From NCBI GenBank assembly GCA_016748015.1, contig JAAOMT010000523.1:1067270-1131269 (forward strand): DNA of 64,000 bases, written 5' to 3'. The notes beneath the pieces were generated by a model. The model searched no databases, had not been told where the DNA came from, and saw only the letters and a list, made by a program, of their open reading frames with translations. The translations under genes and the position numbers were made by a program. The number at the start of each line of letters is the position of its first letter. The first letter of the stretch is position 1. The stretch comes from Geosiphon pyriformis uo1 (Eukaryota > Fungi > Glomeromycota). Of the stretch, positions 6,240 to 45,689 are shown piece by piece.

Positions 6240-7622
6240 TTAATTTGACATGTTTGGTTTAATGATTATAATTGGTTCCAAATCTTGTGGAATCTCATTT
6301 GGTTGGACTATTATTCTTTGTACTCTCAGTTGTGAAATATTACTAGTAGATGCTGATGCTCTATTGTAATATAGTTTTAGTTAATCTCCATGTACTGCTT
6401 TGGTTAAGATTTTGTTGTTCAATCTTAATTTATAAGCTCCGTTTCCAAGAATTTTTTCTATGTAAAATAGTCTGTCTTATTTGGGGTCAAATTTTCTACT
6501 CTATTGTTTTTCCACTTTGGTATGATATAGAAGTACTTTGTCTTCAATTTTGAATTTAACTGGTTTATCTGGTAGTTGATTATTATGTCTTTCTTTTTGT
6601 TTTTTTTGTGACTTTTGAATATTATCAGCTGCTCTTTGTCATTTGTTTTCTAGTGTCTCTATTAAGTCAAATGTTTTTCTCAACAATGTTTTTTGAAAAT
6701 TCTCTTCTGTTATTGGTTCTGTTGGATATGTTTTGACTTTTATCTCAACTGGTAATATTGTTGTTTTACTATATACTAATTTAAATGGTGTTGTTTGTAT
6801 AGTGTCTTGTTTTATTGTTTAGTAAGCAAATAATACTGATGGTATAAACAAATCCCATTTGTCCTGGTTTTCTTGGCTGATTTTGGCAATTGCTTCACAC
6901 AATGTTCTATTAAATCTTTCTACTAGCCCATTGGTTTGTGAATGATATGGTAATAATAATGGTCTTTTTATTCCAAATTTTTGACTTAATTCTGCCAATG
7001 TTCTATTCACAAAATGAGTTTCTTGGTCAGATAATAATTCTTTTGGACATTTGTGTCAACAAATTAGATCTTGATAAATGAATTCAGCAATAGATTCTGT
7101 ATCTGTTTTTTGAATGGCTTTTGCTTCTGGCTATTTTGTAAGATAGTTTATGGCTACTGCAATATATCTGTTGTCTCTGCTGGTTATTGTTAATGGTCTA
7201 ACTAAGTCAATTTCAATACAATCAAATGGTTGTCTCACTTTAATTGGTCTTAATGGCTCACTGGGTTTTGTTCCTCCTTTTCTCTGACAAGCATCACAAT
7301 TTTGAACATATTGGATGATGTCTGAATACATAGATGGCCAATAGTATCTTTTTCTAATTTTTTTTATGGTTGCTTCTTTGTAAAAATGTCCTGCTGTTAA
7401 GTCTGAATACATGTTAAATAATATTGTTTCTTTTTCTGGTTCTGTAATTACTCTGGTTGGTTGATCTGGATTTCTTTTGTTTTTTTGGTAAAGTATATTT
7501 TGATGGTTGATAAAATATTTTGATTGTTGTTTTATGTTGTTTTGTTCCTTTTGAGATAATTTCTCCTTAAACAATTGGGTATTTATGTAATGTTGGAGTT
7601 GTTAGTATTTTTGTATATTCAT
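6240..7622 (-). pseudogene. B1 integrase, separate ORF with its own ATG (HHCC, DDE core, GPY/F-like C-terminus)
   Basis: ORFs 7131-7574 (GHF...YYWP...CDACQ, DLVRPL) and 6819-7010 (YHSQTNGLVERFNRTL). ATG at 7622, 30 nt after the RNase H TAA at 7653-7655. Confidence 0.9.
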
Positions 7623-7822
7623 CTTTTATTATATTTTTGAGTTGAAATGTTTTTAAATTTGTCTTATTCATAACAAGCTGTCTGCATTTTCATTTTTTTT
7701 CCTTTTTTGTAATGTACTGTATAATTAAATAGTAAAATTTCTATTTTCCATCTGACATAATAATTGTCTGCAAATTTTTTGTTTTTGAATTAAAGTCAAT
7801 ACTTTGTGATTAGTGTACACAT

Positions 7823-9391: not shown

Positions 9392-10767
9392 TTATGTGTT
9401 TGGTCCAATGATTATGATTGGTTCCAAATCTCATGGAATCTTATTTGGTTGGATTAGTATTCTAGTATTCCTAATTGTAGAATATTATTGGTGGATGGTA
9501 ACACTATATGGTAATATGGTTTCAGTCAATCACTATGTGCTGCTTTGGCTAAGATTTTGTTGTTCTATCTTAATTTATAAGCTTCATTTCCAAGAATTTC
9601 TTCTATGTAAAATGATTTGTCTCATTTGGGGTCAAATTTTTCACTCTATTGTTTTTCCACTTTGATACGATGTAGAAGTACTTTGTCTCCAATCTTGAAT
9701 TCAACTGGTTTCTCTAATAGTTGGTTATCATGTCTTTTTTTTTGTTTTTTTTGTAACTTTTAGATGTTATCAGCTGCTTTTTGCTGTTTGTTTTCTAGTG
9801 TTTTCATTAAGTCATATGTTCTTTTTAGCAACATTTCCTGAAAATTGTCTTCAGTTATTGGTTTTGTTAGATAAGTATTGACTTCTATCTCAACTGGTAA
9901 TGTTGCTGTTCTACTATATACTAATTCAAATGGTGTTGTTTGTATAGTGTCTTGTTTTATTGTTTGGTAAGCAAATAATACTGATGGTATAAACAAATCC
10001 CATTTGTTCTGGTTTTCTTGGCTGATTTTGGCAATTGCTTCACACAATGTTCTATTAAATTTTTTTACTAGCCCATTGGTTTGTGAATGATATGGTAATA
10101 ATAATGGTCTTTTAATTCCAAATCTTTGGCTTAATTCTGTCAATGTTTTGTTCACAAAGTAAGTTCCTTGATCTGATAGTAGTTCTTTTGGACATCTGTG
10201 TCGACAGATCAAATCTTGATAAACAAATTTGGCAATGGATTCTGCATCTGCTCTTTGAATAGCTTTTGCTTCTGGCCATTTTGTGAGATAATTCATGGCT
10301 ACTGCAATATATCTGTTGTCTCTGCTGGTAATTGTTAATGATCCAACTAAGTCAATTCCAATATGGTCAAATAGTTGTCTCACTTTGATTGGTCTCAATG
10401 GTTCACCGGGTTTTGTTTCATCTCTTCTTTGACAAACATCACAACTTTGAACATATTGAATAATGTCCAGATATATTAATAGCCAATAATATCTTTTCTT
10501 GGTTTTTTCCATGGTTGCTTCTTTGTGAAAATGTTCTGTTGTTAGATCTGAATGCATGTTGAATAGTATTGTTTCTTTTTCTGATTCTGTGATTACTCTG
10601 GTTGGTTAATCTGGATTTCTTTTGTTCTTTTGGTAAAGTATATTTTGATAGTTTATAAAATGTTTTGATTGTTGTTTTATGTTGTTTTGTTCCTTTTGAG
10701 ATAATTTTTCCTTGAACAATTGGGTATTTATATAATGTTAGAGTTGTTGGTATTTTTGTATATTCAT
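9392..10767 (-). pseudogene. B2 integrase, separate ORF
   Basis: ATG at 10767. ORF 9760-10557 has HHCC, GIDLVG, LLSDQG and KFNRTL motifs. Confidence 0.92.
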
Positions 10768-10797
10768 TTTTTGTTATATTTTTGGGTTGAAATTTTT

Positions 10798-13700
10798 TTA
10801 GATTTGTTTTATTTATGACAATCTGTTGGCATTTCCATTGTCTTTTTTCTTTTTATAATATACTATATAATTGAATAGTGAAAGTTCTATTTTCTATCTA
10901 ATATGGCAATTGTCTCTAAATTCTTGCTTCTGGATTGAAATCAATCCTTTGTGATTTATATATATTTCAAACTTTTGGCTCAAGTATTTTTTCCATTTCA
11001 TAACTGTCCAATAGATTGCTAAGTGTTCCAATGCTAGTGTTCCATAGTTTTTTTCAGCTAAACTCAAGCTTTGGCTGGTGTATGCTACTGAATGTTCTCT
11101 TCTATTTGGTTCTTTTTGTGATAGTACTGCTCCCAATGCTTGGCCTGATGCATCAGTAGTGATAATAAATGGTTTGCTGTGATCTGGATACATCAATACT
11201 GAAGCTTAAATAAGCTTTCTTCTCAGTGTGTCAAATGTTTCTTGTTGAGCTTCTGTTCATTCATATTTTACATTCTTAGTTTGTAAATAATAGAATGACT
11301 AGGCCAATTTAGAAAAGTCTTTAATAAAATGACTATAATAGCCTGTAAATCCTAAAAATGTTCTTAGTTCCGTCAAATTGGTTGGTACTGGAAAGTTCTT
11401 TACTATTGCAATCTTATTTGAATCTGTCTTAATACCATCTTTGCTTATAACATGTTCCAAAAATTTGAGTTTTGTTTTTTCAAAGAAACATTTGTTTGCA
11501 TTCAACTTCAATCCTGCTCTTTTCAATCTTTCAAATACTTGTTGAAGATGATGTAGATAATCATTAAATGTCTTGGAGAACACATTTGTGTTGTCTAAGT
11601 AAACAATTACAGATTTCCATAGTAGTCCAGTATAGACAATTTCCATGAGCTATTGGAATGTTGCTGGTGCATTCATCAAGCCAAATGGCATTACTTCAAA
11701 TTCAAAAATTTTTTCTCGCATTGTAAAAGCTGTTTTCTTTTTATCTTCTGGTTTCATGGCTATCTGCCAGTAACCACTGTCTAAGTTTAATGTTGAAAAC
11801 CATTTTTTTTCTCCAAAAGCATCAAACAGCTCTTGAATTTTTGGTGTTGGATAGCTATCTTTTTTGGTTACTCCATTCAACTTCCAGTAATCTACACAAA
11901 AGCAGATTTTCCCATTCTTCTTCCAGACTAGTACTATTGGTAATGACTATGGACTTATTAATGACTGAATTAGTCCATTGTCAAGCATTTAATTAATTTC
12001 TTGACAAATGATCTCATGACTAGTTAGTGGTACTCTGTATGCTCTCTGTTTAATTGGTATTGCATTTCCAGTCTTAATTTAATGTTGAATAATGTCAGTT
12101 TTGCCAAATTTGTTTTTGCTGGCAAAATGTCATTGAAATTGTTGAGTAATATCTTGAGTTGCATATGTTGTAGCGGGTCTAGATTTTCCAAGTTCATCTG
12201 TTCCAATTGTTCTAGTTGAAGTAGATAACATTTTTCTCATCCATAAATTGTTTGTGATGTGATATCTACATATCCACACAGTTGTAGAAAGTCTAGAATG
12301 GTGTTTGGTGAGTGGTTTTCAATTTTGGTGGTTAAGTATCTAATGATAGTTCTTTCTAGTATCTTGATGATATTTCCTATGTTGTTATAAATAGGAATTT
12401 TGATGTGACTGTGGTTTTTGGCTAATATGTATAGATTAACTAATCCAAACTTTTCTGATTCACAAAGTGTTGCTTTTGCCTCAAAAATCTGTACTTGATT
12501 TTTTACTTTTCTGTCTATAACTACTATGTACTGGTCATATGATAGAATGAAAATTGTTTGATGGGTAAAGATAATTTCTTCCTTGTCAATAATTTCTTCC
12601 TCTGCCATATTTAACTGATACATCTATTCTACTTGTTGATCCAAATTTTTGTATTTCTCTAGCCATAATCCCTAATTCTTCTCTGTTTCTTACTGATACT
12701 AATTGAGCTACTTTCACTAGAGACAGAAATATTGTCTGTGCTATCTTTTTATTTGGCTCTATAACATAGGTCTTTTCTGAATTGTTTTGTAGTATTGAAA
12801 TGATATTTCCCACATATTCTGCATCAATTATTCCTCCTCTGATGTTGATTCCTTTTTTCACTAGACTACTCCTAGATGCCAGTTAAACTATTGTTGTTGC
12901 TGGGATTTCTAATGCTATTTTGAGATCAATGCATGTGTGCAAATGTGGTTCCAATTTGATGATATCTTTTTTTGGATATCTTAGATCAAATCTGGTATTA
13001 GTATCATGTACATATTCTGGCATAATACCTTCATTGTTATTGCTGAACCATTTAAGTTTCTGCTTCTTAGAGAGATCAGAAAGTGTGATGTATGTTTCGG
13101 AATTTGAATCAGAGTCTGAATTATCATAATTTTTATTACTATTTTGAATGGAGCTGGAACTGTTATTTTTATTGTTATTGTTGTCAGAGTTTGAATCGGG
13201 ATTAAAAGTTGATTCTAATTCTGATGCGCAGCTGCTGATTGGTTTCTCCTTTTCTGGGATTGTGTAGATCATGCAGATTGGTGGATTGTAAATGAGATCA
13301 CATTTATTACAATATTGAAAGTTATATGAAATTAAACAATGGTCACATAGTTTTGTATTTATTTCTTCCAACTATTGCTCTTATTCCTCTCTAGTAGGTG
13401 CTAATTCCTGGTAGTATTTATGAAATTGTTCTGGATTCAATAGATTTATGACTGGTTCTGGGTTCCAGTCAAGTTCTATAAGTTTTGGTGAATTGTTTTT
13501 TATTATTTTTATTTCTTCTGGTGATGCTTCTTTGATTTTGGCAAGAGCCATTTGCCAAATTTTGTCATCATCATATGGACATCCATCCAAGTATTTGATG
13601 GCTTGTCTTTAGGCAGCATCTATGGGCATTCTTTTTCTAATCCAGTTACTTATGAGAATTGTGTACTAACACGATTTGTCACATGTTCCTCTTTGTCCAG

Positions 13701-16713: not shown

Positions 16714-17697
16714 TGTTACCAGACAAAATTAAAAATATTGTTTAGCATAGAATTACCCTTATAAATTTTATCATTAATTAACATATATTATTGTTTCAAA
16801 TTATTACTTATTACATTAGCAAAATATCCGAAATTATCATTTAATTAATAACCCAATTTGTACATAACACAAATGTAACCTAATTGTAATGATCAATCAT
16901 GTAATACCCCGAACTATGTAACATTCAAAAAGTTTGTCAAAATTTGTAAGAAATTTGTCAAAATAATTGATAGTTCGCCAAAATATCTAATAGTTTGCAG
17001 AAATAACTTGTAGTTCGCCAAAATGTATCTTTAATTCAATGAAATTATAGAAAATAGCAAAGTTCAAGTTCATAGAATAGTGTTATGACAAGTTGTATAA
17101 AAGAAGAGCTTCTCTTTTCAAGGAAATGTATCTTACTTCAGATTTAATAATTAGAATCATCTTTTACATACAAAAACAAAATAAATATCAAATAATTCGA
17201 AAAATCAAATCCTTAATTATTTCCCTTGAAATTAACCAAACCCTACTAACAGTTGAAATTGATTAGCTACCAATTTCAGTAGACTGTTAAAGCATTTTCA
17301 GGTCTGGATCCAAAACGACTTCCATAAATTATCAGTTTTACTTTTTCTTTTACATTCCCTTTATTTTCTTTCTTTTCTTATTATAAATCATTTGAGTATC
17401 CTGCAGACAAAAATTTCTGTAGAAAAGTTGACTTTCACAGCAAAATAACTACACATTTTAGTGAGCTTCCAGACAAGCAATTTCTGGGAAAGAGTTGACA
17501 GTTACTACAATGTAACTATACAAAGTAACTGGCATGGAATTGGCCATTCCACTTATAAGCCCAGCAGTTCAAATTATAGAAGATAATTTGAAGATAAATT
17601 CAGTTATCAGAGGTTCAAACACTTCCCATAATCGTGAATTAACAGTATTACAACAAACATACAAGAGCTAAGAAGAGACCAAAAACCTCTAGTAACA
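16714..17697 (+). repeat. D 5' LTR (984 bp)
   Basis: TGTTACC...AGTAACA; matches 25616 to ~26500. Confidence 0.93.
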
Positions 17698-17741: not shown

Positions 17742-20700
17742 GTGGCGACCATACCAGATGCAACAACTCTAGAGTATTACCAATCAATTTACACCCACTG
17801 CAAGCAAAGATTCAACATTCCAGACGGAATTGAAGTTTTCAAGAAATCAGTATACCAATACATTAAAAACCGCATCAAAAATTATCTTTTTGGAAATTAC
17901 AATATCTCAGAAATTAGAAGCAACTTTTACAATAATTTAGCACACTATTCACAGTTGAGAACTGAAGACTTTAACAGTGAAACACTTGCCATTTACTTTC
18001 AAGAACTTAACTTTAACATTATCAAGTACTGTAAATAAACATATCCAGTGCAGTCTCAATACTCTATTGATTTTGAATTGGAGACAAAAACAAGCAACAA
18101 AAGCAAACAAAAATTGAAGCAATACTCAAAAACCACCCCAAATACCCCAATACTACCAAAAACAACTGCCAAACACTTACAAACACTTGAACAAGGAACC
18201 AGTTCAAAACTTCCACTCACCATCACACTTTTTCCAGCTTCACTTGCACAAGCACAAACACCTAATTCATTCTTGAATCAATTTGCAAGACTAAAAGATT
18301 TTACATCACTCAGAAGTCCCGCCAGACAACAAGAACCTCTTCAAACTAGTTCCAATCTTCTTGACTTCTAGCTGAAAATTGAAGTGAACACTCTGAGACA
18401 GCAGCAAACAAAGAAAATGACTTTGAAATATCTGAAAAAGAATCAATAGACAGTGAAAATAAAAAAGATGAAATGACAGCATACATCACAAAAATCTCTG
18501 AATTCAATGGAAAAGATATTGAGACCAGTTCCCAAGAATGGCTCAACCAAGTTACTAAAACTGGAGATGCAAATAGATGGAATGCTACCAAAATGTTAAG
18601 AACAATTCTCTACTTTCTCAAAGGAACAGCAGATGAATGGTTTGAAAACTTGACCACCCCTTTTAATGACTGGACAGCTTTCAAAACTGCCTTCTTAGAA
18701 CAATTCACTGATAACAACACTTCAATCACACTTCAAAATCATTTTCGCAATATCAAACAAGAACCCTCTGAATCTGTCATGACTTATATTGGGAAATTTA
18801 ACAAACTTCTCAGATGAATTCACCAACTTGAAACTAATGATTATTATTTCAATGCTCAAATCTTGGATTAATTTATTACTGGTTTAAAGGATAAACTGAT
18901 TAAAAAGATTTGCCTACATGCCCCAGAAGATTTAAACACTGCCATACAGCATGTGAAAAGATACGAAATGGCCATGGAAGAGACCAATTACACAAAACTT
19001 GTAAATTTGGCAATTGGAGAAACCAGCTCAGTAGCTGAGGAGAAAATTGACCAACTGACAAAGAAGGTTGAAAACTATTTCACCAATCAACAACAACAGC
19101 AACCCCAAAGATATCAACCACTCCAAAGACAAAATCAAAATAACTTTGCACTACTTTCTAATAACCAGCCTCAGAATTGCCATTACTGTGGAATCTCTGG
19201 CCACTGGAAAAAAGATTGCAGAAAGCTACAGTGAGACCAACAAAATAGGAGTAATCAATGTTACCCTCCACCACAGCAATCTTATTATCAACCACCACCA
19301 GCTTACTATTCACCAAGACCCCAATACCAAAGTAACTATTATCAGCCTGCCTCACAGCTGATCCAACAGCAATACCAACAACCATCCACACAATATTACC
19401 AAGTATCTGCTCGAAGATTGACTCCACAAAACCAATTCATACCACAAAACTGATACCAAGTAAACAACAATAGAATCAGTTTGAACAACCAATTGGTTCT
19501 CCGAAATTCTGCTCAACCAAGACCCAACTACTATCACACTCAACCCAGTTATTTAACAATACCTAAAGAACAGAATTTTCACCATACTGTACTCTCGGAA
19601 GGTAGAGCTACAGCACAACAACAAAACCCTTCCTATACTCCTATCACAATCCCACCAGCCAGAATTGCTGAAAATGCCAATCTTTCAGATATATTTCCTT
19701 TTGAGTTTGAAGCAAATGAGTTACCATTTCTGTTTAGTAATGCAGCTGTCAATAAACAAAAAGCAATCATGGCTATGTACACTGAAGCAGAAGTCGAAGG
19801 AAAGGCAATTTGCTTGATCCTAGATAGTGAATCTGCTGGAAGCATTATCACCTACCAGTTAATGCAACAGTTAAAAAAAAATGTTGACCGACCAGCTCAA
19901 ACAGTAATTGTTACTGCCGATGGCATAAAAAAGACTCCAGTAGAAGAAATTGACAATTTTTCATTCACTTTTAATGGAATCACCATTTCAGTCAAAGTTC
20001 TTGTAATAGATGCATCCCAGTATTAAGCCCTTTTTGAAAATGATTGGCTCCAAACAACCAATGCAAAATTAGACTGGGAAACCCAAGAACTACAAATCTC
20101 TTACCAAAGACAACATGCCCGAGTACCTGCCACTTGTAGTACATTTAACAAATGCTCTGAAAAAGCCCCAGCTTTTGAATTTGAACCAGAAGAAGAAAAA
20201 CCAATAATCAAAACATTCATGGCTCTTGGATCAATGTCCAATTGGGCCAATGAAACTGAACAAGAACATTTTACACCACACTCTGAACTCAAAACCCCTG
20301 GATGGAATATCCCATACTCAAAGTCTGAACTAAGGAAACAACACTCCTACATTCCTCTTAAATGTAAGGACTGCCACAAAAAACTATCATCAATGAGAGC
20401 CTGCATTTTACCTGAAGAAGAATATGAAAATCATACTTGTTATTACTACAAGACTTGTCACAGAAAACAATGGGGCCATTTAATAAAAAGAAGCGGAAAA
20501 TGGGATAACACCTCTTGTTTGACTTGTGGAGATATGCTACCAGAAGAATGCAATTAGATTGATGTAGCAATGAGAGAAAAAGTCTGCAATCAGATCTGCC
20601 AATATGCTTTATCAATTTCAAAAAAAGTAAAAAGAAGAACACTCTTTAATGCAGCATACAACAGTGCTCTCAACAAACTTTATCACTACCTCCATGATGC

Positions 20701-23346
20701 TGAGATAATTTTCGACCTAGCAATAGCATTAATTAATAGAGCTACCAAAGAAAATGTTCATCAAATAAAGGAAGCAGAATACATTGAATACACTATGGAA
20801 TTAGCTGGATTCGATTATGAAGATGAAGTAGAAGTCTACCACCAAATTGCAAGTTACACCTACCCAACCCAAGAAGCTCAAATTCAATGATTAGAGCAAA
20901 TGAACATTAGGCTATGTGAAGAATGCATTATGCTTTGTGATGAACAGTAGTGTCTTAAATGCTATGCTCTTAAAATCCCCTTGCCTAGTAAAAGTAATGA
21001 AAACGAAATTGAATTTGAAAAACCTGAAGCAATGGAAAAAATTGAAACAACACCCATCTATCTTATCAAAAATCAGCCTGCCTTACAACTCAAATACTTC
21101 AACAACAATAAACAAGGAATAAAACCTGAAAAAGCACATAAAATTGATGCTGAATATGACCTAAGATATCCAGACAAGCATACTTTTGTTCTCAAACCCA
21201 AATTTCTCACAAAAATCAATCTTAAAATTGCACTCGAAATCCCACCAGGAGCAATGGTTCAAATCACCTTCCAGTCCTCTCTGGCAAGCAAAGGAATCAA
21301 TATCAGAGGAGGAATAATCGATGCTGGATATACTGGAGACATTACAGTGATGCTTTAAAATGAAACTGACAAACCATTCAAAATTGAACATGCTGAAAAA
21401 ATTGCCCAAGCTATTTACCTACCCCTAATCAACATTTTGGGTTTGCAACTAGTCAATCAAAGAAAACAATTAGGAAAAAGCAATAGAGGAACCCAAGATT
21501 TTGGTTCAACTAGACGATTTACAGTTCCAGTTAATATAACTCTTAATACACAGAATGAATCCCACCAGATTTTCAGACTTCCACAACCAATTACTATCTC
21601 ACTCTTTGGAGAACATCCAGAAATCTACACCTGCCCAAAGCCAACAACCACACAACAAATTTTGGAGTCCAATAAACAAGTCTGCTTGGAACATAATATT
21701 TTGATTCCAAACATTTATATTCCAGAAGGAACAAAGAAAGTCCAAGTTACTTTTTACAATCCCAATAATTACCTCATAGTTTTATTAAATAATTTAGAAA
21801 TTGGAGTTATTCATAGTAATATATTTCAACAAGAATTACCCCAAACAGTCCCCAATTTTTCAGAAATCATTGGACATTCATTACCAAAAATCAACCCAAA
21901 CCCTAGCTCTAAAAACTACCATGTTGTCATAGAAAAACTATCTCAAATCAACATGGGACAACTTGAATCACAACAACAAAACCAGTTCAAAAAGCTAATT
22001 GCAGAATTTGCTGATATCTTTGCTAAAAACAACAATAACTTAAGAAGAACCAATTTGGTCCAACACCAAATTTATACAGGAGATGCCAAACAAAGAAAAC
22101 AACAAACATATCAAGTTGCTCCAGAAAGTCACCAGTTCATCTGAGAAGAAGTACAACAAATGCTTAACAATGGACTCATCCAAGTCCTTGGGCTTCACCT
22201 GTAGTGCTAGTTAAAAAGAAAAATAGAAAGATACAATTTTGTGTTAACTATTGACAACTCAACAGTATTACAATTGGAGATGCCTACCCCCTTTTCCGAA
22301 TTGATGACATGTTAGATGCCCTTGGAAAATCCAAATACTTTTCAACACTAGATTTGGAAAGCGGTTACTGGCAAGTTGCTATGGATTCTAAAGATCACCC
22401 CAAAACAGCATTCACCACTCAAGGCGGAAATTACGAGTTCAATGTAATGCCTTTTGGATTATGCAATACACCAGCAATGTTTCAGAGATTAATGAATGTT
22501 GTGTACCAAGGACTCCTTTGGAAGTCAGTAGTCATTTATCTTGACGATACTGATGTTTATTCTCCATCGTTTGAATTACACTTAAAACACCTGCAAAAAG
22601 TTTTTCAACAATTACGAAAAACAGGACTAAAACTCAACATTGAAAAATACTACTTTGGAAAAACAAGCTTGGCTTTTCTTGGTCATATCATTAGTAAAGA
22701 TGGAATCAAACCAGACTTTGGAAAAATCAGCACTGTTAAAAACTTCAAAACTCCTCAAAACACTACAGAACTAAAAGAATTCATAGGGTTAGCCTCCTAT
22801 TATCGGAAATTTATCAAAGGATTCTCAGAAATCACAAAACCTCTCAACCAGCTTACCACCAAAAATGTTAAATACGAATGAACTGCTGAATGCCAAAATG
22901 CATTTGAAATCCTCAAAGAAAAACTAACGACAGCTCCAATTTTTGCCTACCCAGATTTCAGCAACTGATTCCGATTAGCAACAGATGCCTCTTATACTGC
23001 CTTTGGTACTATCCTATCACAATTAGATGACAATGGAAATAAGCAAGTAATTGCCTATGCTAGCAGAACATTAAAACCAGCTGAGAAAAATTATCCTGCC
23101 ACTGAATTGGAAACAGCAGCTGTAATTTGGGCCTTACATTATTTCAACTTTTATCTTCAGCCAAAGGAATTCGATATTATTACTGATAATATTGGACTCA
23201 AATGGCTTTAGAACAAAAATACTCAGCTAAACGCAAAACAAACCTGATGGACAGGATTTCTAGCAAACTATCAATACATAATACATTATAAACCAGGAAA
23301 ACTCCACACCAATGTTGACTGTCTCTCCAGAATGAGACAAAATTAG
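17742..23346 (+). pseudogene. D ORF1: N-terminal extension, capsid, CCHC, protease, Cys-rich region, dUTPase, RT, RNase H (fused gag-pol ending after RNase H)
   Basis: Fragments 18473-22144 are all in one frame. CHYCGISGHWKKDC; ILDSESAGS; GGIIDAGYTG; IYLDD; ATDAS. Ends SRMRQN-TAG at 23344-23346. Confidence 0.93.
21115..21515 (+). pseudogene. dut: dUTPase domain of D (trimeric type, motifs 1-5)
   Basis: DAEYDLRY, QSSLASKG, GGIIDAGYTG, EKIAQ, RGTQDFGST. Confidence 0.92.
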
Positions 23347-23395
23347 AAAAAAAAAACCAACACTTAACTTAACCAACCAAAACAGCCAACAAAAA

Positions 23396-24781
23396 ATGAA
23401 TTTGGAAAACTACAACAATCTTAAACAATATTTGAAAACATTAACAATCCCAACAGATTGGTCTCCAGATGAAAAACATCGATTACAACAACAAGCCAAA
23501 CAATATTTTCTACACAACAATATTATTTATCAGCAAAATTTCAAAAACCCAAACAAACCACTCAGATTAATACAAGAACAGGAAAAAGAGACTATATTAT
23601 ACAACATGTACTTAGATTCTTCATCAGCACACTTTGGAAAAAACAGCACCACTTAAAGAACACTAGAATACTACTTTTGGTCTCGAATGAGAAAAAACAT
23701 TCATGAATATGTCAAATCTTGTGATAGTTGTCAAAGAAGAGGAGAAACACGCCCTACTGAACCATTAAACCCAATTAAAGTTGGACAGCCTTTTGACAGA
23801 GTTGGTATCAATTTAGTCGGACCACTACCTATCACAAACCAAAGAAACCGTTATATTGTAGTAGCTGTAGACTATCTCACCAAATGGCCTGAAGCCAGAG
23901 CCATTCAATGAGCAGATGCAAAATCAATAGCAAACTTCATTTATAAAGACATTATTTGTAGACATAGATGCCCAATAGAACTTTTATCTAATCAAGGAAC
24001 ACATTTCATGAACAATTTAATCCAAAAAATTTGTGGACAATTTAATGTCAAGAGACTATTATTTTCACCCTACCATCCACAAACCAATAGATTTATAGAA
24101 TGTTTCAACAGAACATTGTGTAAATCATTAGCCAAAGTTTCAACCAATTTTGAGCAAAAATGAGATTTCTTTATTCCATCAGTATTATTAGCATATAGGA
24201 CACTAAAACAAGATACCACAAAACACACACCATTTGATTTAACTTACAGAAGGACGGCAATGTTACCAATTAGTTTTACAGTGGAAACATACCCAGCACA
24301 ACCAATCGATGAAAACAATTTCCAAGAAATGCTTCAGCAAAGAGTCTACACTCTGTTTAGCACATTGGAAGGAAAATGACGAATAGCAACCATCCATATT
24401 GAACACTCTCAAGCTCAACAAAAAGAATGGCATAATGACAAATTGCCTCCAGTCACCAATGAATATAAAATTGGAAACAAAGTTCTCTTACACAGAACTA
24501 AAGCTGAAAAACAATGGAGTGGAAAATTTGAGAATAAATGGGATAGACCATTCTTTATCTATGAAGTTTTAGACAACGGATCATACAAGCTAAGACTTGA
24601 TGACAAAATCCTAGCAAAAGTTGTACATGGAGATCATTTGAAACACTATAATTCCAGAAACAATCTTGAACCATTAATTCTACAAATTGGTACACATTCT
24701 CCTTTAATCAATCCCAAAGACATTCCCCGAAACTTAGAACCAATAGTTGTCATTGAACAACTCCCCAACTTGAACACTTAA
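23396..24781 (+). pseudogene. D integrase, separate ORF
   Basis: Own ATG at 23396; AHFG...CDSCQ, GINLVGPL, KWDRPF...GSYKL. No chromodomain. Confidence 0.92.
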
Positions 24782-24927: not shown

Positions 24928-25647
24928 ATGACTATCCCTCAAAATATTCAACAGTTATCTCAAAAATTAATGTTAGCTTTAAAAACAATACCCGAATTAT
25001 CCATTACTATCACTAGAAAACATATTAATTATACCCAAACAGAAATAGTTACAAATCTAGCCCCAAATTCACGAAAGTATCATCCTTATAGGAAAAACAC
25101 AAAAAGTTATTCTGGAATTCATTTACCAGAACTTTTGAAGCTTGCTTTAAGAGAAAACTTATTGCTCACCCTTATTAATATTTCACTAAATGCTACTATT
25201 CAACAAAAACTTTAACTGTGTCTTAATGAAGAAAATGGCAAATACCTCCCAATATATAGATATTTTTATATTGGAAAAACACTTCATGAGCAAAAACTAG
25301 AGCTTACATCAGCAAACCTCACAAAAAAAGCTATTTGGAAACAACTCTACAACAAATTCAAGACGACAGCTGGACCTACAAACAGTCATTATAAACTAAG
25401 AGCTGCTCTTAGACTTTATGACCTATTCTACACCTGTGAAAACGTCCTGTAAAACCCAATTTTACAGCCTTTGAAGATTCAATACATTGGAAAGCTCACA
25501 GAACTGAAATTTCAACAATTTTCAGACCAAATTTCTTCAATAATTTTGGATTACTATCTGGAAATTACAAACAGTACTTGGACTTTGACAAAGCTCAGTT
25601 TTGAGGAGGAGATTATGTTACCAGACAAAATTAAAGATATTGTTTAG
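24928..25647 (+). pseudogene. D ORF3, accessory protein (~239 aa, two CAA>TAA stops), reading through the PPT into the 3' LTR
   Basis: One frame: MTIPQNIQQL...RYFYIGKTLHE...YKLRAALRLYDLF...IQYIGKLTELKFQQF...EEEIMLPDKIKDIV*. Confidence 0.85.
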
Positions 25648-26598
25648 CATGGAATTATCCTTATAAATCTTATCATTAATTAACATATATTATCATTTCA
25701 AATTATTCCTTATTACATTAGCAAAATATCCAAAATTATCATTTAATTAATAACCCAATTTGTACATAACACAAATGTAATCTAATTGCGATGATCAATC
25801 ATGCAATACCCCGAACTATGTAACATTCAAAAAGTTCGCCAAAATTTGTAAGAAATTTGCCGAAATAATTGATAGTTTGCCAAAATATCTAATAGTTCAC
25901 AGAAATAACTTGTAATTCACCAAAATGTATCTTTAGTTCAGCAAAATTATAGAAAATAGCAAAGTTCAAGTTCATAGAATAGTGTTACGACAAGTTGTAT
26001 AAAAAAAGAGCTTCTCTCTTCGAGGAAATGTATTTTACTTCAGATTTAATAATTAGAATTATTCTTTACATACAAAAACAAAATAAATATCAAATAATTC
26101 GAAAAATCAAATTCTTAATTATTTCCCTTGAAATTAACCAAACCCTACTAACAGTTAAAATTGATTAGCTACCAATTTCAGTAGACTGTTAAAGCACTTC
26201 CAGGCCTGGATCCAAAATGACTTCCATAAATCATCAGTTTTACTTTTTTTTACATTCCCTTTATTTTCTTTCTTTTCTTATTATAAATCATTTGGGTATT
26301 TTACAGACAAGAATTCCTGTAGAAGAGTTGACTTTCACAGCAAAGTAACTACACATTTTTAATGAGCTTCCAGATGAGCAATTCCTGGGAAAGAGTTGAC
26401 GTTTACTACAACGTAACTATACAAAGTAACTGGCATGGAATTGGCCATTCTACTTATAAGCCCAGCAATTCAAATTATAGGAGATAATTTGAAGATAAAT
26501 TCAGTTATTGGAGGTCCAACTACTTCCTGGAAACGTGAATTCACAGCAAATCAACATTAACAAAATTCAAGAAAAGTGACCAAAAACCTCTGGTAACA
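25616..26598 (+). repeat. Chimeric LTR (D-type left part, C-type right end) shared by D and C
   Basis: Left ~800 bp match the D 5' LTR; the last ~90 bp match the C 3' LTR end rather than the D end; followed directly by a PBS. Confidence 0.88.
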
Positions 26599-29600: not shown

Positions 29601-32248
29601 GCTGAAATGATTTTTGACTTAGCAATGGCATTAATCAATGAAGCCACCCAAGAAAATGTCCATCAAATAAAAAAAGCTGAATACATTAAGTATACCATGG
29701 AGTTAGCTGGATTTGATTATGAAGATGAAATAGAAACATACCACCAAATTGCAAGTTATACATATCCAACCAAAGAAGCTCAAATTCAACAATTAGAGCA
29801 AATGAACATTCAATTGTGTAAAAAATGTGTTATGCCTTGTAATGACCAATGGTGTTTAGAATGCTATGCTCTTAGCATTCCCTTGCCAGATGAGAATGAT
29901 GAAAATAAAATAAAATTTGGAGTATCTGAACTAGTAGAAGAATTACCAATCACTCTCATCTATCTTCTTGAAAATTAACCACCTCTACAACTTAAATATT
30001 TCGACAACCATGGCCAAGGAATCATACCAGAAAAAGCACATGAAATTGATGCTGGGTATGACTTAAGATACCTTGATTCTCCAACCAAAGTTCTTGACAA
30101 AAATCAACCTCAAAATTGCTCTTGAAATTTCACCTGGAGCAATGATTTAAATTGCATCCAGATTATTATTGGCAAGCAAAGGAATCAATATTAGAGGAGG
30201 AGTTATAGATGCAGGATATATTGAAGACATTATCATCATGTTACAGAATAAAACAAACAAACCATTCAGAATTGAACATGCTGAGAAAATTGCCCAAGCA
30301 ATTTACTTATCCTTAATCAACATTTCAGGTTTACAATCAGTGAAAAACAGAGAACAATTGGAAAAAAGTGAAAGAAGAACTCAAGGTTTTGGTTCAACTG
30401 GACGATTTACAGTGCCAGTAAACATAGCTTTCAATACACAAAATGAATCTCACCAGATTCTTCAACTTCCCCAACCAATTACCATTTCATCTTTTGAAGA
30501 ATATTACGAAATTTACACCTGCTCAAAACCCACCACTACCCAACAAATCTTTGAATCCAATGAACAAATCTGTTTAAAGCATGAAATCTCAATCCCAAAC
30601 GTTTATATTCCTAAAGGAATGAAAAAATTTCGAGTTATATTCTACAACCCCAACAATTACCCTATTGTCCTATTAAATAAACTAGAAATTGGAATTATAC
30701 ACAGCAATATTTTCCAAGATAAAAACCCTCAAATTGTCTCTAATTTCATCGAAATTATAAGACATACATTACTTCCAAATCCAAACATCACCCCTACTAC
30801 TGAAAACTACCATCTGTTGGAAGAAAAACTCTCTAGAATCAACATGAATCCCTTAGAACCCCAACAACAAAGACAATTAAAACAATTGATAGCTGAATTT
30901 GCAAATATATTTGCAAAAGACAACAATGACCTGGGAAAAACGGATATTGTCCAATATCAGATCCACACAGGAGATGCTCCACCAAAAAGACAACAAGCTT
31001 ATTGAGTGCCACCTGCCAACCACTAATTCATCAGAGAAGAGATCCAAAGAATGCTCAATAACGAATTAATCCAACCATCAAGAAGTCCATGGGCCTCACC
31101 AGTAGTTTTAATTAAAAAGAAAAACGGAAAAATCAGATTCTGTGTTGATTATAGACAACTGAATAGTATTACAATTGGAGATGCCTACCCTCTTCCAAGA
31201 ATTAATGATATGTTAAATGCTTTAGGAAAAACCAAGTTCTTCTCAACTTTAGACTTGGAAAGTAGATATTGGCAAGTCGAAATGGACCCAAAAGATCGAC
31301 CCAAAACAGCATTTACCACTCAAGAAGGAAACTATAAGTTCAATGTTATGTCTTTTGGACTCTGCAATGCACCAGCAACATTCCAGTAACTTATGAATGT
31401 TGTATATGAAGGGCTCTTGTGGCAATCAGTAGTTGTTTATCTTGATGACACTAATGTGTACTCACCAAGCTTTGAAGCCCATCTTATTTACCTGCAAGAA
31501 GTTTTTCAACAATTATGGAAAGCAGAATTGAAATTAAACATTGAGAAATATCACTTTGGAAAAACAAGTTTAATCTTTCTTGGACATATTGTTAGCAAAA
31601 ATAGAGTCAAACCAAATCCTGAAACAATCAGTGCTGTCAAAAACTTTCAAACTTCCAAAAATACCACAGAGCTATGAGGATTTGTAGGATTAGCCTCCTA
31701 CTATCGAAAATTCATCAAAAAATTCTCAGAAATTGCCAAACCACTTAATTATCTCACCAACAAAAATGTGTCTTACAAATGGACAGAAGAACAACAAAAA
31801 GCTTTTGAAACCCTCAAAACAAGACTGACAACAGCCCCAGTTCTTGCTTATCCAGACTTCAACAAATGGTTTCAACTAGCCACTGATGTTTCACACATAG
31901 TATTTGGTGCCATCTTATCACAATTGGATGAAAATGGCCAAGAACAAGTCATTGCTTATGCTAGTAGAATACTCAAATCAACAGAACTCAAATATGGCTC
32001 AACTGAATTAGAAGCTGCTGTAGTCATTTGGGCTCTTAAACCCTTTCAACAATACTTAGAATGAAAAAGAATTTGACATCATAACTGACAATATTGGTTT
32101 CAAATGGCTTAATAAAAAGAAAACTGAATAAAGTGCCAAACAGTCTCGATGAAATGACTTCTTAGCAGACTACAAATATATTGTATACCACAAACCAGAA
32201 AAACTACACACCAATATTGATAGTCTCTCAAGAATGAGACAAGATTAA
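26644..32248 (+). pseudogene. C ORF1: N-terminal extension, capsid, CCHC, protease, Cys-rich region, dUTPase (~30015-30405), RT, RNase H
   Basis: LILNSGSAGS; GGVIDAGY and RRTQGFGSTG; VYLDD; ATDVS. Ends SRMRQD-TAA at 32246-32248. Confidence 0.93.
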
Positions 32249-32306
32249 ACACCAACAACAAATCCAACACAACTCACCAACTTATCAACACAATAACCAA
32301 ATAACA

Positions 32307-33692
32307 ATAGATTTCAGAAATTACAACAATCTTAAAAACTATTTGGAGACTTTTACTATACCAGAAAATTGGTCTCCAAGTAAAAAACATCGATTACAAC
32401 ACCAATTTAAACAATATTTCATACACCACAACAAAATCTATTACAAAAATTGTAGAAATCCAAACCAATCACTCAGATTAGTACAGGAAAATGAAAAAAA
32501 AACAATCCTATACAACATGTACACAGATCCATCTTCAGCACACTTGGGAAGAGATAAAACAATCCAAAGAACTCTTGAACATTATTTTTGGCCTCAAATG
32601 CAAAAAGACATTTGACAATATATAGAATCTTGTGATAGTTGTCAAAGAAGAAAAGAAACTCACCCCACAGAACTTTTAAATCCAATTAAAGTTGGACAAC
32701 TTTTTGACAGAGTTGGAATTGATTTAGTCGAACCATTACCTATCACAACCCAAGGAAATTGCTATATTGCAGTAGCAGTAGATTATTTCACCAAATGGCC
32801 TGAAGCTAGAGCCATCCAAAGAGCAGATGCAAAATCAGTAGCAAATTTCATCTATAAAGACATTATCTGTAGACATGGATGCCAAATTGAACTTTTATCT
32901 GATCAAGAAACACATTTTGTAAACAACTTGATACAAAAAATTTGTGAACAATTCAATGTCAAAAGACCTCTATCATCACCTTATCACTCTTAAACAAATG
33001 GATTTGTAGAACGTTTCAACAGAACATTGTGTGAATCTCTAGCCAAAGTCTTAACAAATTTTGAGCAGGAATGGGATATTTTTATTTTATTAGTGTTACT
33101 AGCATACAGAACACTAAAACAAGATACCACAAAACACACATCATTTGATCTTACTTATGGAAGGACAGCAACATTACCAATTAATTTCACAGTGGAAACA
33201 TACCCTGTGCAACCAATTAATAAAGAAAACTTTCAAGAAACACTCCAAAGAAAAGTCTACACTCTTTTTAATACACTGGAAAGAAAAAGAAAGATAGCAG
33301 CAACTCATATTGAACATTCCCAAGTTCAACAAAAAGAAAGACATGACAACAAATTACCACTCATAACCAACAAATTTAAAATTGGAAATAAAGTTCTTTT
33401 ACACAGAACTAAGGCCAAAAAACAATGGAGTGGAAAATTTGAAAACAAATGGAATGGACCATTTTATATTCACGAAATTCTAGGCAATGGATCATACAAG
33501 TTAAGACTTGGTAACAAAGTACTAACAAAAATTGCACATAGAGATAGATTGAAACACTATCATTCCAGAAATAATCTTGAACCATTAATTCCACAAATTG
33601 GTACACATTCCCCTTTAATTAAACCTGAAGATATTCCCCGAAATTTAGAACCAATAATTATAATAGAACAACAGCCAAACTTGAACACTTAA
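32307..33692 (+). pseudogene. C integrase, separate ORF
   Basis: Starts at ATA (position of D's ATG) 58 nt after the RNase H stop; HHCC, DDE and WNGPFY motifs. Confidence 0.9.
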
Positions 33693-33852: not shown

Positions 33853-34560
33853 ATGATTATTCCCCGAAATATTCAACAAATATCCCAAAAATTAATGTTA
33901 GCTTTGAAAACACTTCCTGGTTTGTCTATAACGATTAATAAAAGTCAAATTAATTACATTTAGAAAGAAACCACAGCCCCAATAGTAAATAATTCTCAAA
34001 ACTATCACTCTTATAAAAGAAAAACAAGAGGTCACTCTGAAAATAGGTTACCAGAACTCTTAAAGCAAGCACTAAAAGAAAACCTCTTAATTGCCCCTAT
34101 TGACATTTCACCAAATGCCACAATGCAACAAAAACTTTTACTATTTCTCAATGAACAGAACAATGAACATACCCTTATATATAGATATTTTCATATTGGA
34201 AAAACACTTTATGGACGAAAACTAGAACTTGAAGCAACCAATATCACTCCTAAGAATATATAAAAACAAATTCACAATGAATTCAAGACAGCAGCTGGAC
34301 CAATAAATACTCATTATAAACTTAGAGCAGCATTTAGACTCTATGATTTATTCAACACTTGTGAAAACGTCCTACAAAATCCAATACTCCATCCAATGAA
34401 GATTCAATACATTGGAAAGCTCACAGAACTGAAATTTCAACAATTTTCAGACCAAATTACTTCAATTATCTTGAACTATTATCTTAACATCACAGATAGT
34501 GCTTGGATTTTGATGGAGCTCAGTCTTAAGGAGAAGATTATGTTACCAGTAGAATTTTAG
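33853..34560 (+). pseudogene. C ORF3, accessory protein (~235 aa), overlapping the PPT and 3' LTR
   Basis: MIIPRNIQQISQKLMLALK...RYFHIGKTLY...YKLRAAFRLYDLF...IMLPVEF*; no frameshift relative to D ORF3. Confidence 0.85.
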
Positions 34561-35512
34561 CTATTAATTAGCATGAAATTACCCTTATAATTCCTATTAT
34601 TAATTAGCATATATCATTATCATTTCGATTATCCCTTATTATTTAATCAAATTATCAAATATCATTACTCAATCAATAATCCGATTTGTACTCTAGAAAT
34701 TAAAATGATCAAATTACACAATACCCTGAACCATTTAACATAGTCAAAATTCGTCGAAATTAATGAAAATTTGCTGAAATAATCAATAGTTCAATGAAAT
34801 AACTTGTAAATTTGCCGAAATGTATCTTTAGTTCACCCAAATTTTAGCAAAAAGAAAAGTGCAAGTTTAAAGACTAGTACTATAACAAGTTGTATAAAAG
34901 AAGAGCTTCTCTCTTCAAGAAAATGTATCTTCTCATAGTATTTTAACATAGTATCTTACTTTAGATATCTTAATTGAAACAAATCACCTTTTATACATTC
35001 AAATAAAAATTAAATATTCAAAAAACAAATCCTTAAAATTATTGCACTTGAAATTCCTTCAACACAACTAACGTTTTGAAATTGATTAGCTACCAATTTC
35101 AATAATCTGTTAGTGACTCCAGGCTTGGATAGAAAACGTTTCCCTTGATAAAATTCTATTTCTTTTACATTTCTTTTATTTTTCTTTTCTTTTCTTATCA
35201 TAATCATTAGGGTAGCCTACAGACGAGATTCCTGAAGAAGAGTTGATTTTCACAGCAAAGTAACTACACATTTTAGTGAGCTTCCAGATGAGCAATTCTT
35301 GGAAAAAAGTTGACGTTTACTACAACATAACTACATAAAGTAACTGGCAAGGAATTGGCCATTCCACTTATAAGCCCAGCAGTTCAAATTATAGGAGATA
35401 ATTTGAAGATAAATTCAGTTATTGGAGGTCCAACTACTTCCTAGAAACGTAAATTCACAGCAAATCAACATTAACAAAATTCAAGAAAAGAGACCAAAAA
35501 CCTCCAGTAACA
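34541..35512 (+). repeat. C 3' LTR (972 bp)
   Basis: TGTTACC...AGTAACA followed by TSD ATAG. Confidence 0.95.
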
Positions 35513-41719: not shown

Positions 41720-44394
41720 ATGTATCTCCAAAGGGTGAGAGTGCAAACCAACTAGAAGAAAATCTCTTTTCTGCTTTTAACCTAACTGATGATAATTATG
41801 ATATGAATGAACTAGCAATCAACACCTCCAAATCAACCAGAAAAAAGAAAAAAGCCAAGATTGATTTTGTTTTGGACCCAAACAAAGCATCCAAATCATC
41901 TGTTGATAATAATGAGCCACCAAAGGCTAAGGTTTTTAAAAATCCTCCAAAGTTGGAATCTCCAGAAATTGTACAAAAATCTGGACCCTATTCTGTTGTT
42001 AAAGATCTCATGGAAATCCCAGCACACATTACATTTGGCCAACTAATGACCCATCCACAATTCAGAAAAAATCTTTGTAAATCATTGATATCCAAAAAAA
42101 AGACACCAAAGACTAACAACGCCTATGTCAAGCTGGATTTGCTAACAACAGCAATGTTACCTCTCTGATTTGCAAAGCCCAAGTGACTGGCTACTTTATC
42201 AATTTAATTCTAGACAGTGGATTATCTGTCAGTGTAATTGCCAAACACTTTCTAGAAGCCATTGGAAGAAAGATTGATGAACCTTCTATCCAGCCTATGA
42301 CCAATGTACATGGTGACAAGAAGAAAGACCTGGGCATAGCCAAAGCTATTCCTGTTTACATTAATGGTATCAGTATTGAAACTAATATGGAAGTATCTAA
42401 AACAAAAGAGTACACCATAATTGTTGGCAATAAGTGGCTTAAGAAAGCTAAAGCACTACTTGACTATGAGCTTTGTGAACTAACCATCAGATGTGGTAAG
42501 AAACTCATTGTGGTTAAATGCTGTTATTGAACAACTCCTCCAGTAATCAAACAGAACCAAAAAAAAAACAATCAAATAAATCAGATAATAATGAGAGTGA
42601 TGATGAAGATCAAGAAGAACAAGAAGAAACTGCTGAACTTGCCTACACCATTTTCACCAGCAATGGCAAGCCACTGAATAATGTTAAAGCTGACAAAGAA
42701 GGAATCATGGTAAATGGCAAGCTGACCTGCTGGCCTTACTATGATATCCTCAGAAGAACCTTTGACAGAAAACCTAGCAAGAAAGCCAAATACAGTTATT
42801 GGTGACATGGCCCTTGTGCACAATACTAATGCAATAAACTTTTGTATTTACCAAGTGATGAATGCAAATCATGTCTGATCTATTACAAAGATTGGGAACC
42901 AATTAGCTTGATACCTAGAGAAGAACTTAAAAAAGTACAAAAGTCCTTTGAAAATGAACCACCTGAAATCCAATCACTAGTTGTAAAACAAAGAGAACTT
43001 TTCTCTAAAAAAAAAAAATAGACATTAAGAATTTGCTGGTTAGAAATAGCCCAGTTATCTCAAAAGAAGGTAATACCCCTGAACAAACCCATGTGATACA
43101 ACACACCATCACCACCAAAAACACTCGCCTCATCCATTTGAAGCCTTATTAATCCAATCAACACAATGATGAGTTTATTAAGAAAGAAATAAACCGAATG
43201 AAAAATCTTGGATTCATACAAGAAAACAAAAGTGAATGAGCTTTTCCAGTTGTAGTGATACTCAAGAAAGGTAGAACTCTATGCTTTTGTGTTGACTACT
43301 GCCAATTAAATGCCATCACTATAAGAGACATATATTCACTCCCCAAAATTGATATAATGCTAAATAAATTCAATAGTACTGCTTTCTTCTCAACCATTGA
43401 TTTAACTGCTGGATTTTGGCAAGTAGAAATGAATTCAGAAAGCAGAAAGAAAACTGTCTTCATTACCAAGTATGGCACCTATGAATTTACAGTTATGTTT
43501 TTTGGTCTCACCAATGCTCCTCCTATCTTTTAACACCTAATGGATAAAGTGTTTGAATCAGTAAAAAAAAACTTTGTTCTGGTTTACTTGGACAACATAA
43601 TGGTATACTCAAACACCTGGGATAAACACCTTAAACATCTGCAAAAGGTTTTTGACCTCCTTAAAAATGCTGGCCTTAAAATCAACCCAATCAAATCTTT
43701 CTTTGGATACCAATCCACCCAATTTCTTGGTTATCTTGTTACAAAAGATGGAATCTTTTCTGATCCAGCTAAAGTTAAAAAAGTTCAGAACATTAAACAA
43801 CCAATGAATGTTCCTGAACTATGCTTTTTCCTTGGTTTGGCCTTTTACTACCACAAATTTATCAAGAATTTCTCTAAAATTGCCTTTTCTTTCAATCAGC
43901 TACTCAGAAAAAATGTCAATTATTACTGGGACACTCATCAACAAAAAGCTTTTGAATTTCTGAAAGAAAAACTTGTTACTGAATCAATTCTCAAACAATT
44001 TGATCTGGACCAACCTTTTATCCTCCACACTGATGCATCTGGCTATGAACTTGGTGCTGTTTTTTTACAAAAAGACGAAAATAACAGAAAACATGCCATA
44101 GCATATGCCAGTAGATCCCTCACACCAATAGAAAAGAACTATTCAGTTACTAAACAAGAATGTTTAGCAGTAGTTTGGGCTACCAACTACTGGGATCAAT
44201 ATCTTCTTGGTGCAAAATTCTTAGTGGTAACAGATCATTAAGCCTTGGTTTGGCTGCACAAGAAAAAAAAGCTGGAACACAAATGAATAACTCACTGGAT
44301 ACTTCACTTGGATGAATTCAACTATGATATTCAACACTGCAAAGAAGCAAATCATCAAAACACTGATGCTCTATCTAGACTTACCATCCAGTAA
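41707..44394 (+). pseudogene. E1 pol: protease, RT, RNase H; ends after RNase H
   Basis: LILDSGLSVS; VYLDN; HTDASGYELGAV. Ends ALSRLTIQ-TAA-TAG at 44392-44397. Confidence 0.92.
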
Positions 44395-44458
44395 TAGTAC
44401 AACCTCTCAAACCAAACCAACTTAATTATTAATAAATCTTTTACAAACAAACACGATA

Positions 44459-45689
44459 ATAGACTTGGACAACTACTCTGCCTTAATGGAATTTTTGGAT
44501 AAAGAACAATATCCACCAGAATACACTTGACAGCAAAGAGAACATTTGTGTAAACAATCAAATTTCTATTTGATCCACCAGAATCAATTATATAAAAGAA
44601 ACAGAAAAAATTCTAATCATTACCAAAAAGTTATCAGTTTTGAAGAAGAAAAAATTGTAATATACAACATGCACACTAACCCATTAGCTGGACACTTTGG
44701 AAAAACAAAAACAATTCAGAAAACTTTAGCTTGCTATTATTGGCCTACCTTGGAAAAAGACATTGCTGAATACATCAAAACCTGTGATATCTGCCAAAGA
44801 AGAGACAAACCCAATTGCAAAGAAGATATCCATCCAATCTCTGTTGGTCAACCATTTGACAGAATTGGTATAGATGTTGTTAGACCTTTAACAATAACTC
44901 CTAATGGCAACAGATATATTATTACAGTTACTGACTATCTTACAAAGTGGGTAGAAACAAGAGCCACCCCAGACCAAACAGCAGTCTCAATAGCCAATTT
45001 CATTTATAAAGATATTATCTGCTGTTATAGCTGCCCCAAAAAACTTTTATCTGATTGAGAAAGAGCTTTTCTCAGTACACTGGTTGAAGAACTTTGTAGA
45101 AAAATGTGAATACATCATAAACTTTCCTCCTCTTATCACCCCCAAACAAATGGCCTAGTGAAACATTTTAATAGAACACTATGTAAAACCCTAACCAAAA
45201 CCAGTGAAGAAACAAACTTATAGGACAAAGTACTGCCATCAGCTTTGTTTGCTTATAGAACTGTGAATTATGACATAACAAGTTATGAATCTTTTTATCT
45301 GCTCTATGGATGCATGGCAACACTACTAATAGAAACTAACATTAAAACAATATTCTTTGAAGAGATCACAATAGGAAATTACAAAGACATTTTGCAAAGA
45401 AGACTTGGTACTATTCTTGACTCCTTGGTAGAAGCACAAATAATTGCTTTTAAAAAGATGTTCTAACAGAGATAATGTTTATGGTGATAAATTTTCTAGC
45501 CAGTAGAAAGAACTCTTTATAGTCAACAAAGTTTTGAACAATGGTTCTTATATTCTTTAAGATCAATCTGAAACAATCTTCAATGATTGTCCTGTTTATG
45601 TTACACGACTCAAGAAATATCATAAATGACCTGATTGGCTGCCTATTGTAGTAATACTGACTCAAATGATCAGCAAAAATCAAGTATAA
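44459..45689 (+). pseudogene. E1 integrase, separate ORF
   Basis: ORF 44546-45058 MHTNPLAGHFG...CDICQ, GIDVV; different frame from RNase H. Confidence 0.9.

Follow-up and report, generated by a model that had tools for sequence, protein, structure and literature searches.

Integrase as a separate cistron in a lineage of Gypsy-type LTR retrotransposons from Geosiphon pyriformis and related elements

The stretch of the Geosiphon pyriformis uo1 genome analysed here (the window; 64 kb of contig JAAOMT010000523.1) is an AT-rich nest of decayed long terminal repeat (LTR) retrotransposons with a CpG observed/expected ratio of 0.14, and its Gypsy-type copies belong to a lineage in which integrase (IN) is a separate cistron with a conserved AUG and a free frame offset to the upstream Pol frame. 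A first-pass annotation of the window had proposed that Pol terminates just past RNase H (RH) in all seven copies; we re-derived the junctions and found that integrase indeed starts 30–64 nucleotides (nt) further on in 7/7 copies (three families), and that its status as a separate gene holds across the lineage and not only in these copies. In element D (+ strand), the Pol stop TAG (23344-23346), four codons past the RNase H end motif, is followed by an A/C-rich spacer of 49 nt without ATG (23347..23395) and, at offset +1, by a stand-alone integrase open reading frame (ORF; 23396..24781), which begins MNLEN at ATG 23396, encodes an H2C2 zinc finger and an rve core and carries decay stops. Element C has TAA at 32246, a 58-nt spacer and ATA at 32307, likely a decayed ATG (junction 32246..32309, +), again at offset +1 and leading into an integrase ORF recognised by Pfam (32307..33692, +). 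On the minus strand, B2 (10765..10800) has TAA 10800-10798, a 30-nt spacer and ATG 10767 in frame, B1 (7620..7655) has TAA 7655-7653, a 30-nt spacer with in-frame stops and ATG 7622, and the heavily decayed B-family copy A (694..729) has TAA 729-727, 30 nt and ATA 696; a second in-frame TAA is common to all three, as had been described. The E1 junction (44392..44461, +) consists of TAA-TAG at 44392, a 64-nt spacer and ATA 44459, and the E2 junction (57492..57561, -) of TGA-TAG 57561-57559, a 64-nt spacer and ATA 57494; both spacers contain an integrase-frame stop and both junctions are at offset +1. The C/D spacer is open in the integrase (+1) frame.

As the seven copies represent three families only (A/B1/B2, C/D and E1/E2, by self-BLAST and alignment) and are all full of C>T/G>A decay stops, the window alone is unable to exclude decay. 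A protein search with the C integrase returned 706 proteins of 254-809 aa (E<=1e-20), of which the best 120 were integrases of ~420 aa with 40-51% identity to C; 118/120 start with Met, mostly at the position of the window integrase start. Named relatives came from Rhizophagus irregularis and Entrophospora, with longer matches from Cetraspora and R. clarus, placing the closest named sequences in Glomeromycota. A metagenome scan with an alignment of stand-alone integrases was then used to survey RH-IN junctions in relatives (best 80 of 576 loci, from 24 of 64 parts). The RNase H end motif was found upstream in 51/80 loci and all 51/51 were split; the other 29/80 loci lack the motif, mostly because the contig ends first. 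Many of these loci are intact, with Pol ORFs of 500-1600 codons and full integrase ORFs, and match Pfam Ty3_capsid, Retrotrans_gag, RVT_1 and RT_RNaseH, which are Gypsy-type families in the same order as in the window. The intact relatives are split rather than bearing an uninterrupted RH-IN frame. With a relaxed motif, 52 junctions were usable, and 49 remained after dropping three with premature stops in a long Pol tail. Among these, frame offsets 0/+1/+2 occurred 13/19/17 times, spacer length ranged from -20 to +365 nt, stop and start overlapped or abutted (-20 to +2) in 16/49 (ATGA four times, TAATG twice), and a further integrase-frame stop lay downstream of the Pol stop in 25/49.

The integrase start codon is real. 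Its second residue is D, E or N in 73/73 relatives; NatB acetylates N-termini beginning Met-Asp, Met-Glu or Met-Asn, and the bias would fit a true NatB-acetylated N-terminus, although helix capping could also contribute to it. The start context has A at -3 in 47/72, compared to 32% of 457 internal in-frame ATGs, and G at +4 in 60/72. Spacers of at least 10 nt hold 18 ATGs compared to 39.4 expected (0/1000 shuffles as low); 27/33 are free of ATG, and 15 of the 18 sit in three loci.

Where the window copies read ATA, the first-pass annotation had left a choice between G>A decay and non-AUG initiation. Differences between copies are mostly transitions, and aligned triplets that are ATA in one copy are about as frequent as those that are ATG in both (8 vs 9, 9 vs 7 and 7 vs 8 in the comparisons made), so that decay explains the ATA starts; with ATG in the intact relatives, a non-AUG start was rejected as not needed. 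The G-poor character of the spacers stands for the window (0-3% G) and is partly a product of decay, intact relatives having 13% G. In host sequencing run X1, 1769 contigs aligned to the B2 junction, and none of the 29 variants at a share of at least 2% touches either TAA or the ATG; six contigs carry replaced spacers with length changes of +8, +1, +2, +1, -7 and +15, mostly out of frame. At the D junction, 21 contigs diverge within the stop, as would be expected if TAA precedes another spacer there (from 40 of the 80 variant rows). Nothing aligned from runs X2 and X3. A decay origin of the stops was rejected, because relatives are split and host copies keep both stops and ATG.

Split sequences cluster in both an integrase tree and a reverse transcriptase (RT)-RH tree. 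The split is therefore old and for the most part monophyletic, allowing for some recombination or noise in the trees, and we claim no direction of change. The integrase tree (FastTree, 202 rows, leaving out short or heavily broken loci, window copies A and E1, and proteins P0198 and P0199) places all split rows in a clade of 88 with support 0.987, which also holds the longer proteins P0192-P0194 and P0196. On the RT-RH tree (148 rows, mostly unnamed Gypsy-type proteins), 34/36 split rows form one clade (0.97) together with P0192-P0194. Two points weigh against this interpretation: L037, L038 and P0196 fall outside the split clade on the RT-RH tree, the integrase of P0196 nesting within it, and the loci were chosen by an alignment of stand-alone integrases, so that selection may favour split forms. 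P0196 is a possible recombinant or re-fusion.

The best mechanism for expressing the separate integrase is probably termination-reinitiation on the genome-length RNA. Ribosomes would terminate on the Pol stop and restart at the next AUG for integrase, restarting in place where stop and AUG overlap or abut (16/49 relatives); at spacer junctions, such as those of 7/7 window copies (30-64 nt), the 40S subunit would first cross the AUG-free spacer. One branch has a conserved folded RNA element between the two codons (see below) that would likely assist restart or bind integrase. As integrase has no covalent link to Gag, it would need to reach particles by binding its own RNA or Gag/Pol, and different branches may use different mechanisms. 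Re-initiation is favoured by the overlapping stop and start codons at two junctions, by the ATGs found upstream, by spacers free of AUG and by the absence of a conserved splice acceptor. In 16/16 overlap junctions another ATG lies at most 80 nt upstream, and ribosomes on a capped subgenomic RNA with a more distant 5′ end would reach that ATG before the integrase start. A stop-start junction also follows integrase in several relatives (-11, -8, -4, -4, +3 and +5), suggesting that the RNA is polycistronic as a rule.

Precedents for such restarts exist in other elements and in viruses. SART1 re-initiates at UAAUG and needs structure downstream of the stop, and restart has been proposed for LINE-1 ORF2 behind a 63-nt spacer (PMC5972666, PMC10275272). 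The present lineage has in common with SART1 and LINE-1 the overlapping stop and start codons, spacers that lack AUG and are comparable in length (30-64 nt in the window) and, in one branch, RNA structure after the stop; both of those are non-LTR elements, whereas here the junction is the RNase H-IN junction of an LTR element and restart is a proposed mechanism. The overlaps ATGA and TAATG are stop-start patterns of fungal virus and SART1 re-initiation (PMC10275272, PMC5972666), and a UAAUG stop-restart is likewise described for CHV1 (in part of PMC2699510). They occur in 6/49 relatives and form the likeness to HvV190S (upstream pseudoknot), CHV1 (UAAUG) and the termination upstream ribosomal binding sites (TURBS) of caliciviruses and influenza B; in contrast to these, UGGGA is not conserved here, most junctions have spacers, and structure, where present, follows the stop.

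Several observations weigh against re-initiation. Motif 1 of TURBS is UGGGA, and a TURBS-type UGGGA was found within 120 nt upstream of the stop in 2/52 junctions only, so the junctions do not have the TURBS pattern; visual inspection of the overlap clades showed no common upstream structure, and the folded RNA is absent from the window and from 56/80 loci. Long spacers (to 365 nt; L011 and L026 with 7 and 6 upstream ATGs) are hard to explain by simple re-initiation, and a subgenomic mRNA would account just as well for AUG-free spacers and a favourable start context, as features of its 5′ leader. An alternative explanation, which we consider unlikely, is that integrase is translated from its own subgenomic mRNA, made from an internal promoter near the RNase H end or spliced from the 5′ leader in the manner of foamy virus Pol. 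The leader-like spacers and the long spacers of some loci speak for it, as does one clade with U-rich tracts and multiple TTAAC words (13 vs 4.9 expected). A cryptic promoter at a retrotransposon ORF junction is described for Tca2 (in part of PMC2194720), and foamy virus Pol is made separately from Gag, with packaging through RNA bridging (PMC3196705, PMC3705302). However, no conserved splice acceptor was found (9/33 spacers without AG, the nearest upstream YAG lying 0-267 nt away), the upstream ATGs of the 16/16 overlap junctions would intervene, and repeated stop-start overlaps at two junctions are not needed under a subgenomic model. Between re-initiation and a subgenomic RNA, the sequence evidence leans to re-initiation. 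In foamy virus the whole Pol is separated by splicing. It is the nearest precedent for loading, differing from the present lineage in that only IN is separate here.

Two features of individual spacers were also observed. L001, L003, L004, L006, L008, L012, L013 and L079 have a U-rich spacer in which a GAT...TTAAC-like unit recurs, the repeats stopping 3-10 nt short of the ATG; these units are possible protein-binding sites. L011, L026 and L048 share a different conserved block of ~28 nt, located ~75-100 nt 5′ of the integrase ATG in long spacers with several upstream ATGs.

The folded RNA is a motif of ~40 nt between Pol stop and integrase AUG in 23/80 loci (L016, L019-L023, L027-L029, L031-L033, L035, L043, L045, L046, L049, L052, L059, L064-L066 and L076; for example L032:4465-4499) and, as a variant, in L015. 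A 13-pair structure is kept in 97.2% of 247 cells across 19 aligned copies, and double-sided changes number 31 compared to 7.8 in shuffles (0/500) and at most 4 in slid controls. The closing helix and a 5+2-bp hairpin covary, whereas all changes in the 2-bp side helix (P2) are one-sided and the fold favoured by RNAalifold is a bulged hairpin that lacks P2, so that the three-way junction is at most putative. In 22/23 loci the 3′ end of the motif lies 1-14 nt from the AUG, and in 14/21 measurable loci, by rough measurement, its start lies ~19-31 nt after the stop. A blind pattern scan gave 40 exact matches in a prokaryote collection and one in a viral collection; L104 (1239-1273, -) alone scored well with the covariance model (47.8 bits) and alone of the 41 has an integrase of the family, starting 38 nt on. 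L104 is a 1.4-kb contig in a bacterial metagenome-assembled genome and is likely mis-binned; the viral match is due to chance, and viral contigs also gave three weak partial integrase matches. The covariance model found no match in the window at E<=1, and Rfam gave none over the motif in 18 loci at E<=5 (three unrelated weak matches) or in L032 4420-4530 at E<=10. Some loci within the motif clade (L054, L056, L060 and L062) are missing it, which counts against a general role, as the motif cannot then be required lineage-wide. Candidate functions are a restart aid, a small internal ribosome entry site (IRES), or a binding site for integrase or Gag. In L021, L023, L032, L045, L062 and L065, Pol runs 236-344 residues past RNase H and contains an acidic stretch and a Cys/His-rich part without a Pfam match; this extension occurs in the motif-bearing clade.

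That the motif is a small IRES, with integrase made by internal ribosome entry on the genome-length RNA independently of Pol termination, is more doubtful still than a subgenomic mRNA. The nearly fixed distance to the AUG, set against a gap of anywhere between ~19 and 109 nt to the upstream stop (roughly measured), would suit it, as would the strong covariation and the blind recovery of an integrase 38 nt behind a motif. On the other hand, only 23 (and one variant) of 80 loci and none of the window copies have the motif, it measures ~40 nt only with a weak predicted stability of -3 to -10 kcal/mol, and the overlap junctions point to coupling with termination. Under re-initiation, a broader picture is possible, which we put forward tentatively: a polycistronic fungal Gypsy lineage in which gag-pol, integrase and an accessory gene would be read by successive stop-restart, the ~40-nt RNA of one branch driving restart or capturing integrase in cis for packaging. 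The RNA would lie immediately 5′ of the integrase AUG, barely beyond the terminating ribosome.

The accessory gene in question follows integrase. An ATG-started ORF of at least 90 codons lies 3′ of integrase in 23/32 loci with an intact integrase and enough sequence, and a profile finds the accessory family (~140 aa, e.g. L019:1596-2039) in 33/45 loci; 216 cluster representatives match one member. The protein is predicted to form a confident all-helical domain (pLDDT 96.8). Pfam gave no match to it at a useful E, and structure comparison gave none with either Foldseek (E<=0.001) or VIA-align (Z>=5). In the window, accessory ORFs are present in D (24928..25647, +; ~240 codons, decayed, extending into the LTR), in C (33853..34563, +; 66% identity to that of D), in B2 (9361-8696, -), in E1 (45731, +) and in E2 (56139, -); their similarity to the relatives' family is weak (hhalign probability 5% and 2.5%), and the family profile has no match in the window. 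A post-integrase ORF in L013 (6546-6941) has weak helix-turn-helix Pfam matches and is unrelated to the main accessory family.

It is very improbable that Pol and integrase form one product through readthrough, a frameshift or an intron, or that the stops are decay. In favour of this reading stand the many decay stops of the window, the +1 frame that stays open across the C/D spacer, a single in-frame stop in 4/49 relatives, NCBI gene models of Cetraspora and Rhizophagus that join RT and IN, and P0196, a continuous RT-RH-IN ORF with an 11-residue linker. Against it, all three frame offsets occur, the further integrase-frame stop blocks 25/49, and the stops and the ATG persist in host copies whose spacers differ in length out of frame. 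With neither a fixed offset nor an open path into IN, programmed readthrough and frameshift were rejected for the lineage, and the shifty stop considered earlier for C/D became unlikely given the spread of offsets. A fusing intron was also rejected for the lineage: under permissive rules, 38/49 junctions admit none that preserves RNase H, and the 11/49 permissive solutions use scattered and mostly poor sites. Among longer proteins (647 matches; best 60 inspected), the three Glomeromycota gene models P0192-P0194 join RT and IN and lack the RNase H C-terminal motif, and they look like predicted introns bridging the stop. P0198 is without RT; in P0199 the end of RNase H is present, together with a gap of 134 residues and an incomplete integrase.

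A different stop was seen upstream. Six loci (6 of 9 stops inspected; L010:2882, L011:870, L026:86, L047:3290, L051:902 and L067:780) carry one in-frame TGA, with CTA after it, in the region separating gag-protease from RT-RNase H. TGA-CTA is a readthrough-type context, and the site is a candidate for programmed readthrough, unusual in following the protease; the RH-IN junction has no comparable constancy of stop context.

Compared to canonical Ty3/Gypsy elements, the window copies share TG...CA LTRs, a primer-binding-site (PBS)-like site, a purine tract, a 4-bp duplication and the order gag-protease-(dUTPase)-RT-RNase H-IN. Gypsy elements, including the dUTPase-bearing fungal PosPlaTy3-5, have integrase inside a Gag-Pol or Pol polyprotein, and some fungal elements are also drawn with an extra ORF, in the parts of PMC5911963 and PMC2864245 that cover them. 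Here, in contrast, IN forms a separate cistron whose AUG can stand in any of the frames, and because it is not joined in frame to RT-RNase H we class the elements as a variant rather than as canonical Ty3-like elements. A literature search (without most subscription papers, Repbase and the supplementary structure table of PMC2864245, which could list such elements) found no split RH-IN junction described in LTR elements. Fungal Ginger DNA transposons, defined by an rve domain according to part of PMC5751038, share a stand-alone rve-family integrase; identity with Ginger was rejected because RT-RNase H lies directly upstream and LTRs surround the unit. Counts of fungal ‘Ginger’ based on rve only could include such integrase ORFs.

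The polyprotein is the textbook device that sets enzyme ratios in LTR retrotransposons and retroviruses and brings integrase into their particles, so a widespread, once very active lineage without an RT-IN link must have another route for expression and loading. Re-initiation would add LTR elements to the few eukaryotic cases of restart after a long ORF, one branch of the lineage supplies a compact covarying RNA motif without an Rfam match, and the split shows how integrase can become a free module. For annotation, the consequences are that intact split elements give the impression of being damaged, that predicted genes apparently span the stop by means of false introns, and that a free integrase ORF may enter counts of DNA transposons.

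The remaining features of the window complete the Ty3/Gypsy-type picture of direct TG...CA LTRs, a PBS-like site, a polypurine tract and a short target duplication. Element D, between LTRs of ~980 bp, reads gag-protease-dUTPase-RT-RNase H, then integrase, then the extra ORF. Its 5′ LTR (16714..17697, +; TG...CA, from self-BLAST with ends read) is followed by a PBS-like site and by the decayed gag-to-RNase H frame (18390..23346, +; translation and Pfam), whose start is approximate and which has one frame break before RT. Pfam matches in D cover aspartyl protease, RVT_1 and RT_RNaseH, and the dUTPase match comes from the equivalent stretch of C; the dUTPase domain lies between protease and RT, with a Cys-rich region before it (30151-30400 in C, about 21100-21520 in D). 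A single LTR (25616..26598, +), with a purine tract before and a PBS-like site after, serves as 3′ LTR of D and 5′ LTR of C, and the 3′ LTR of C follows at 34541..35512 (+). The elements thus form tandem LTR-sharing arrays nested in one another, namely LTR-LTR-D-LTR-C-LTR (15938-35512) and a B-family array (7823-51682). The arrays are flanked by 4-bp duplications, ATAG at 15934/35513 and ATGT at 51686/7822 (minus strand), both beginning with AT, which indicates integrase-type insertion.

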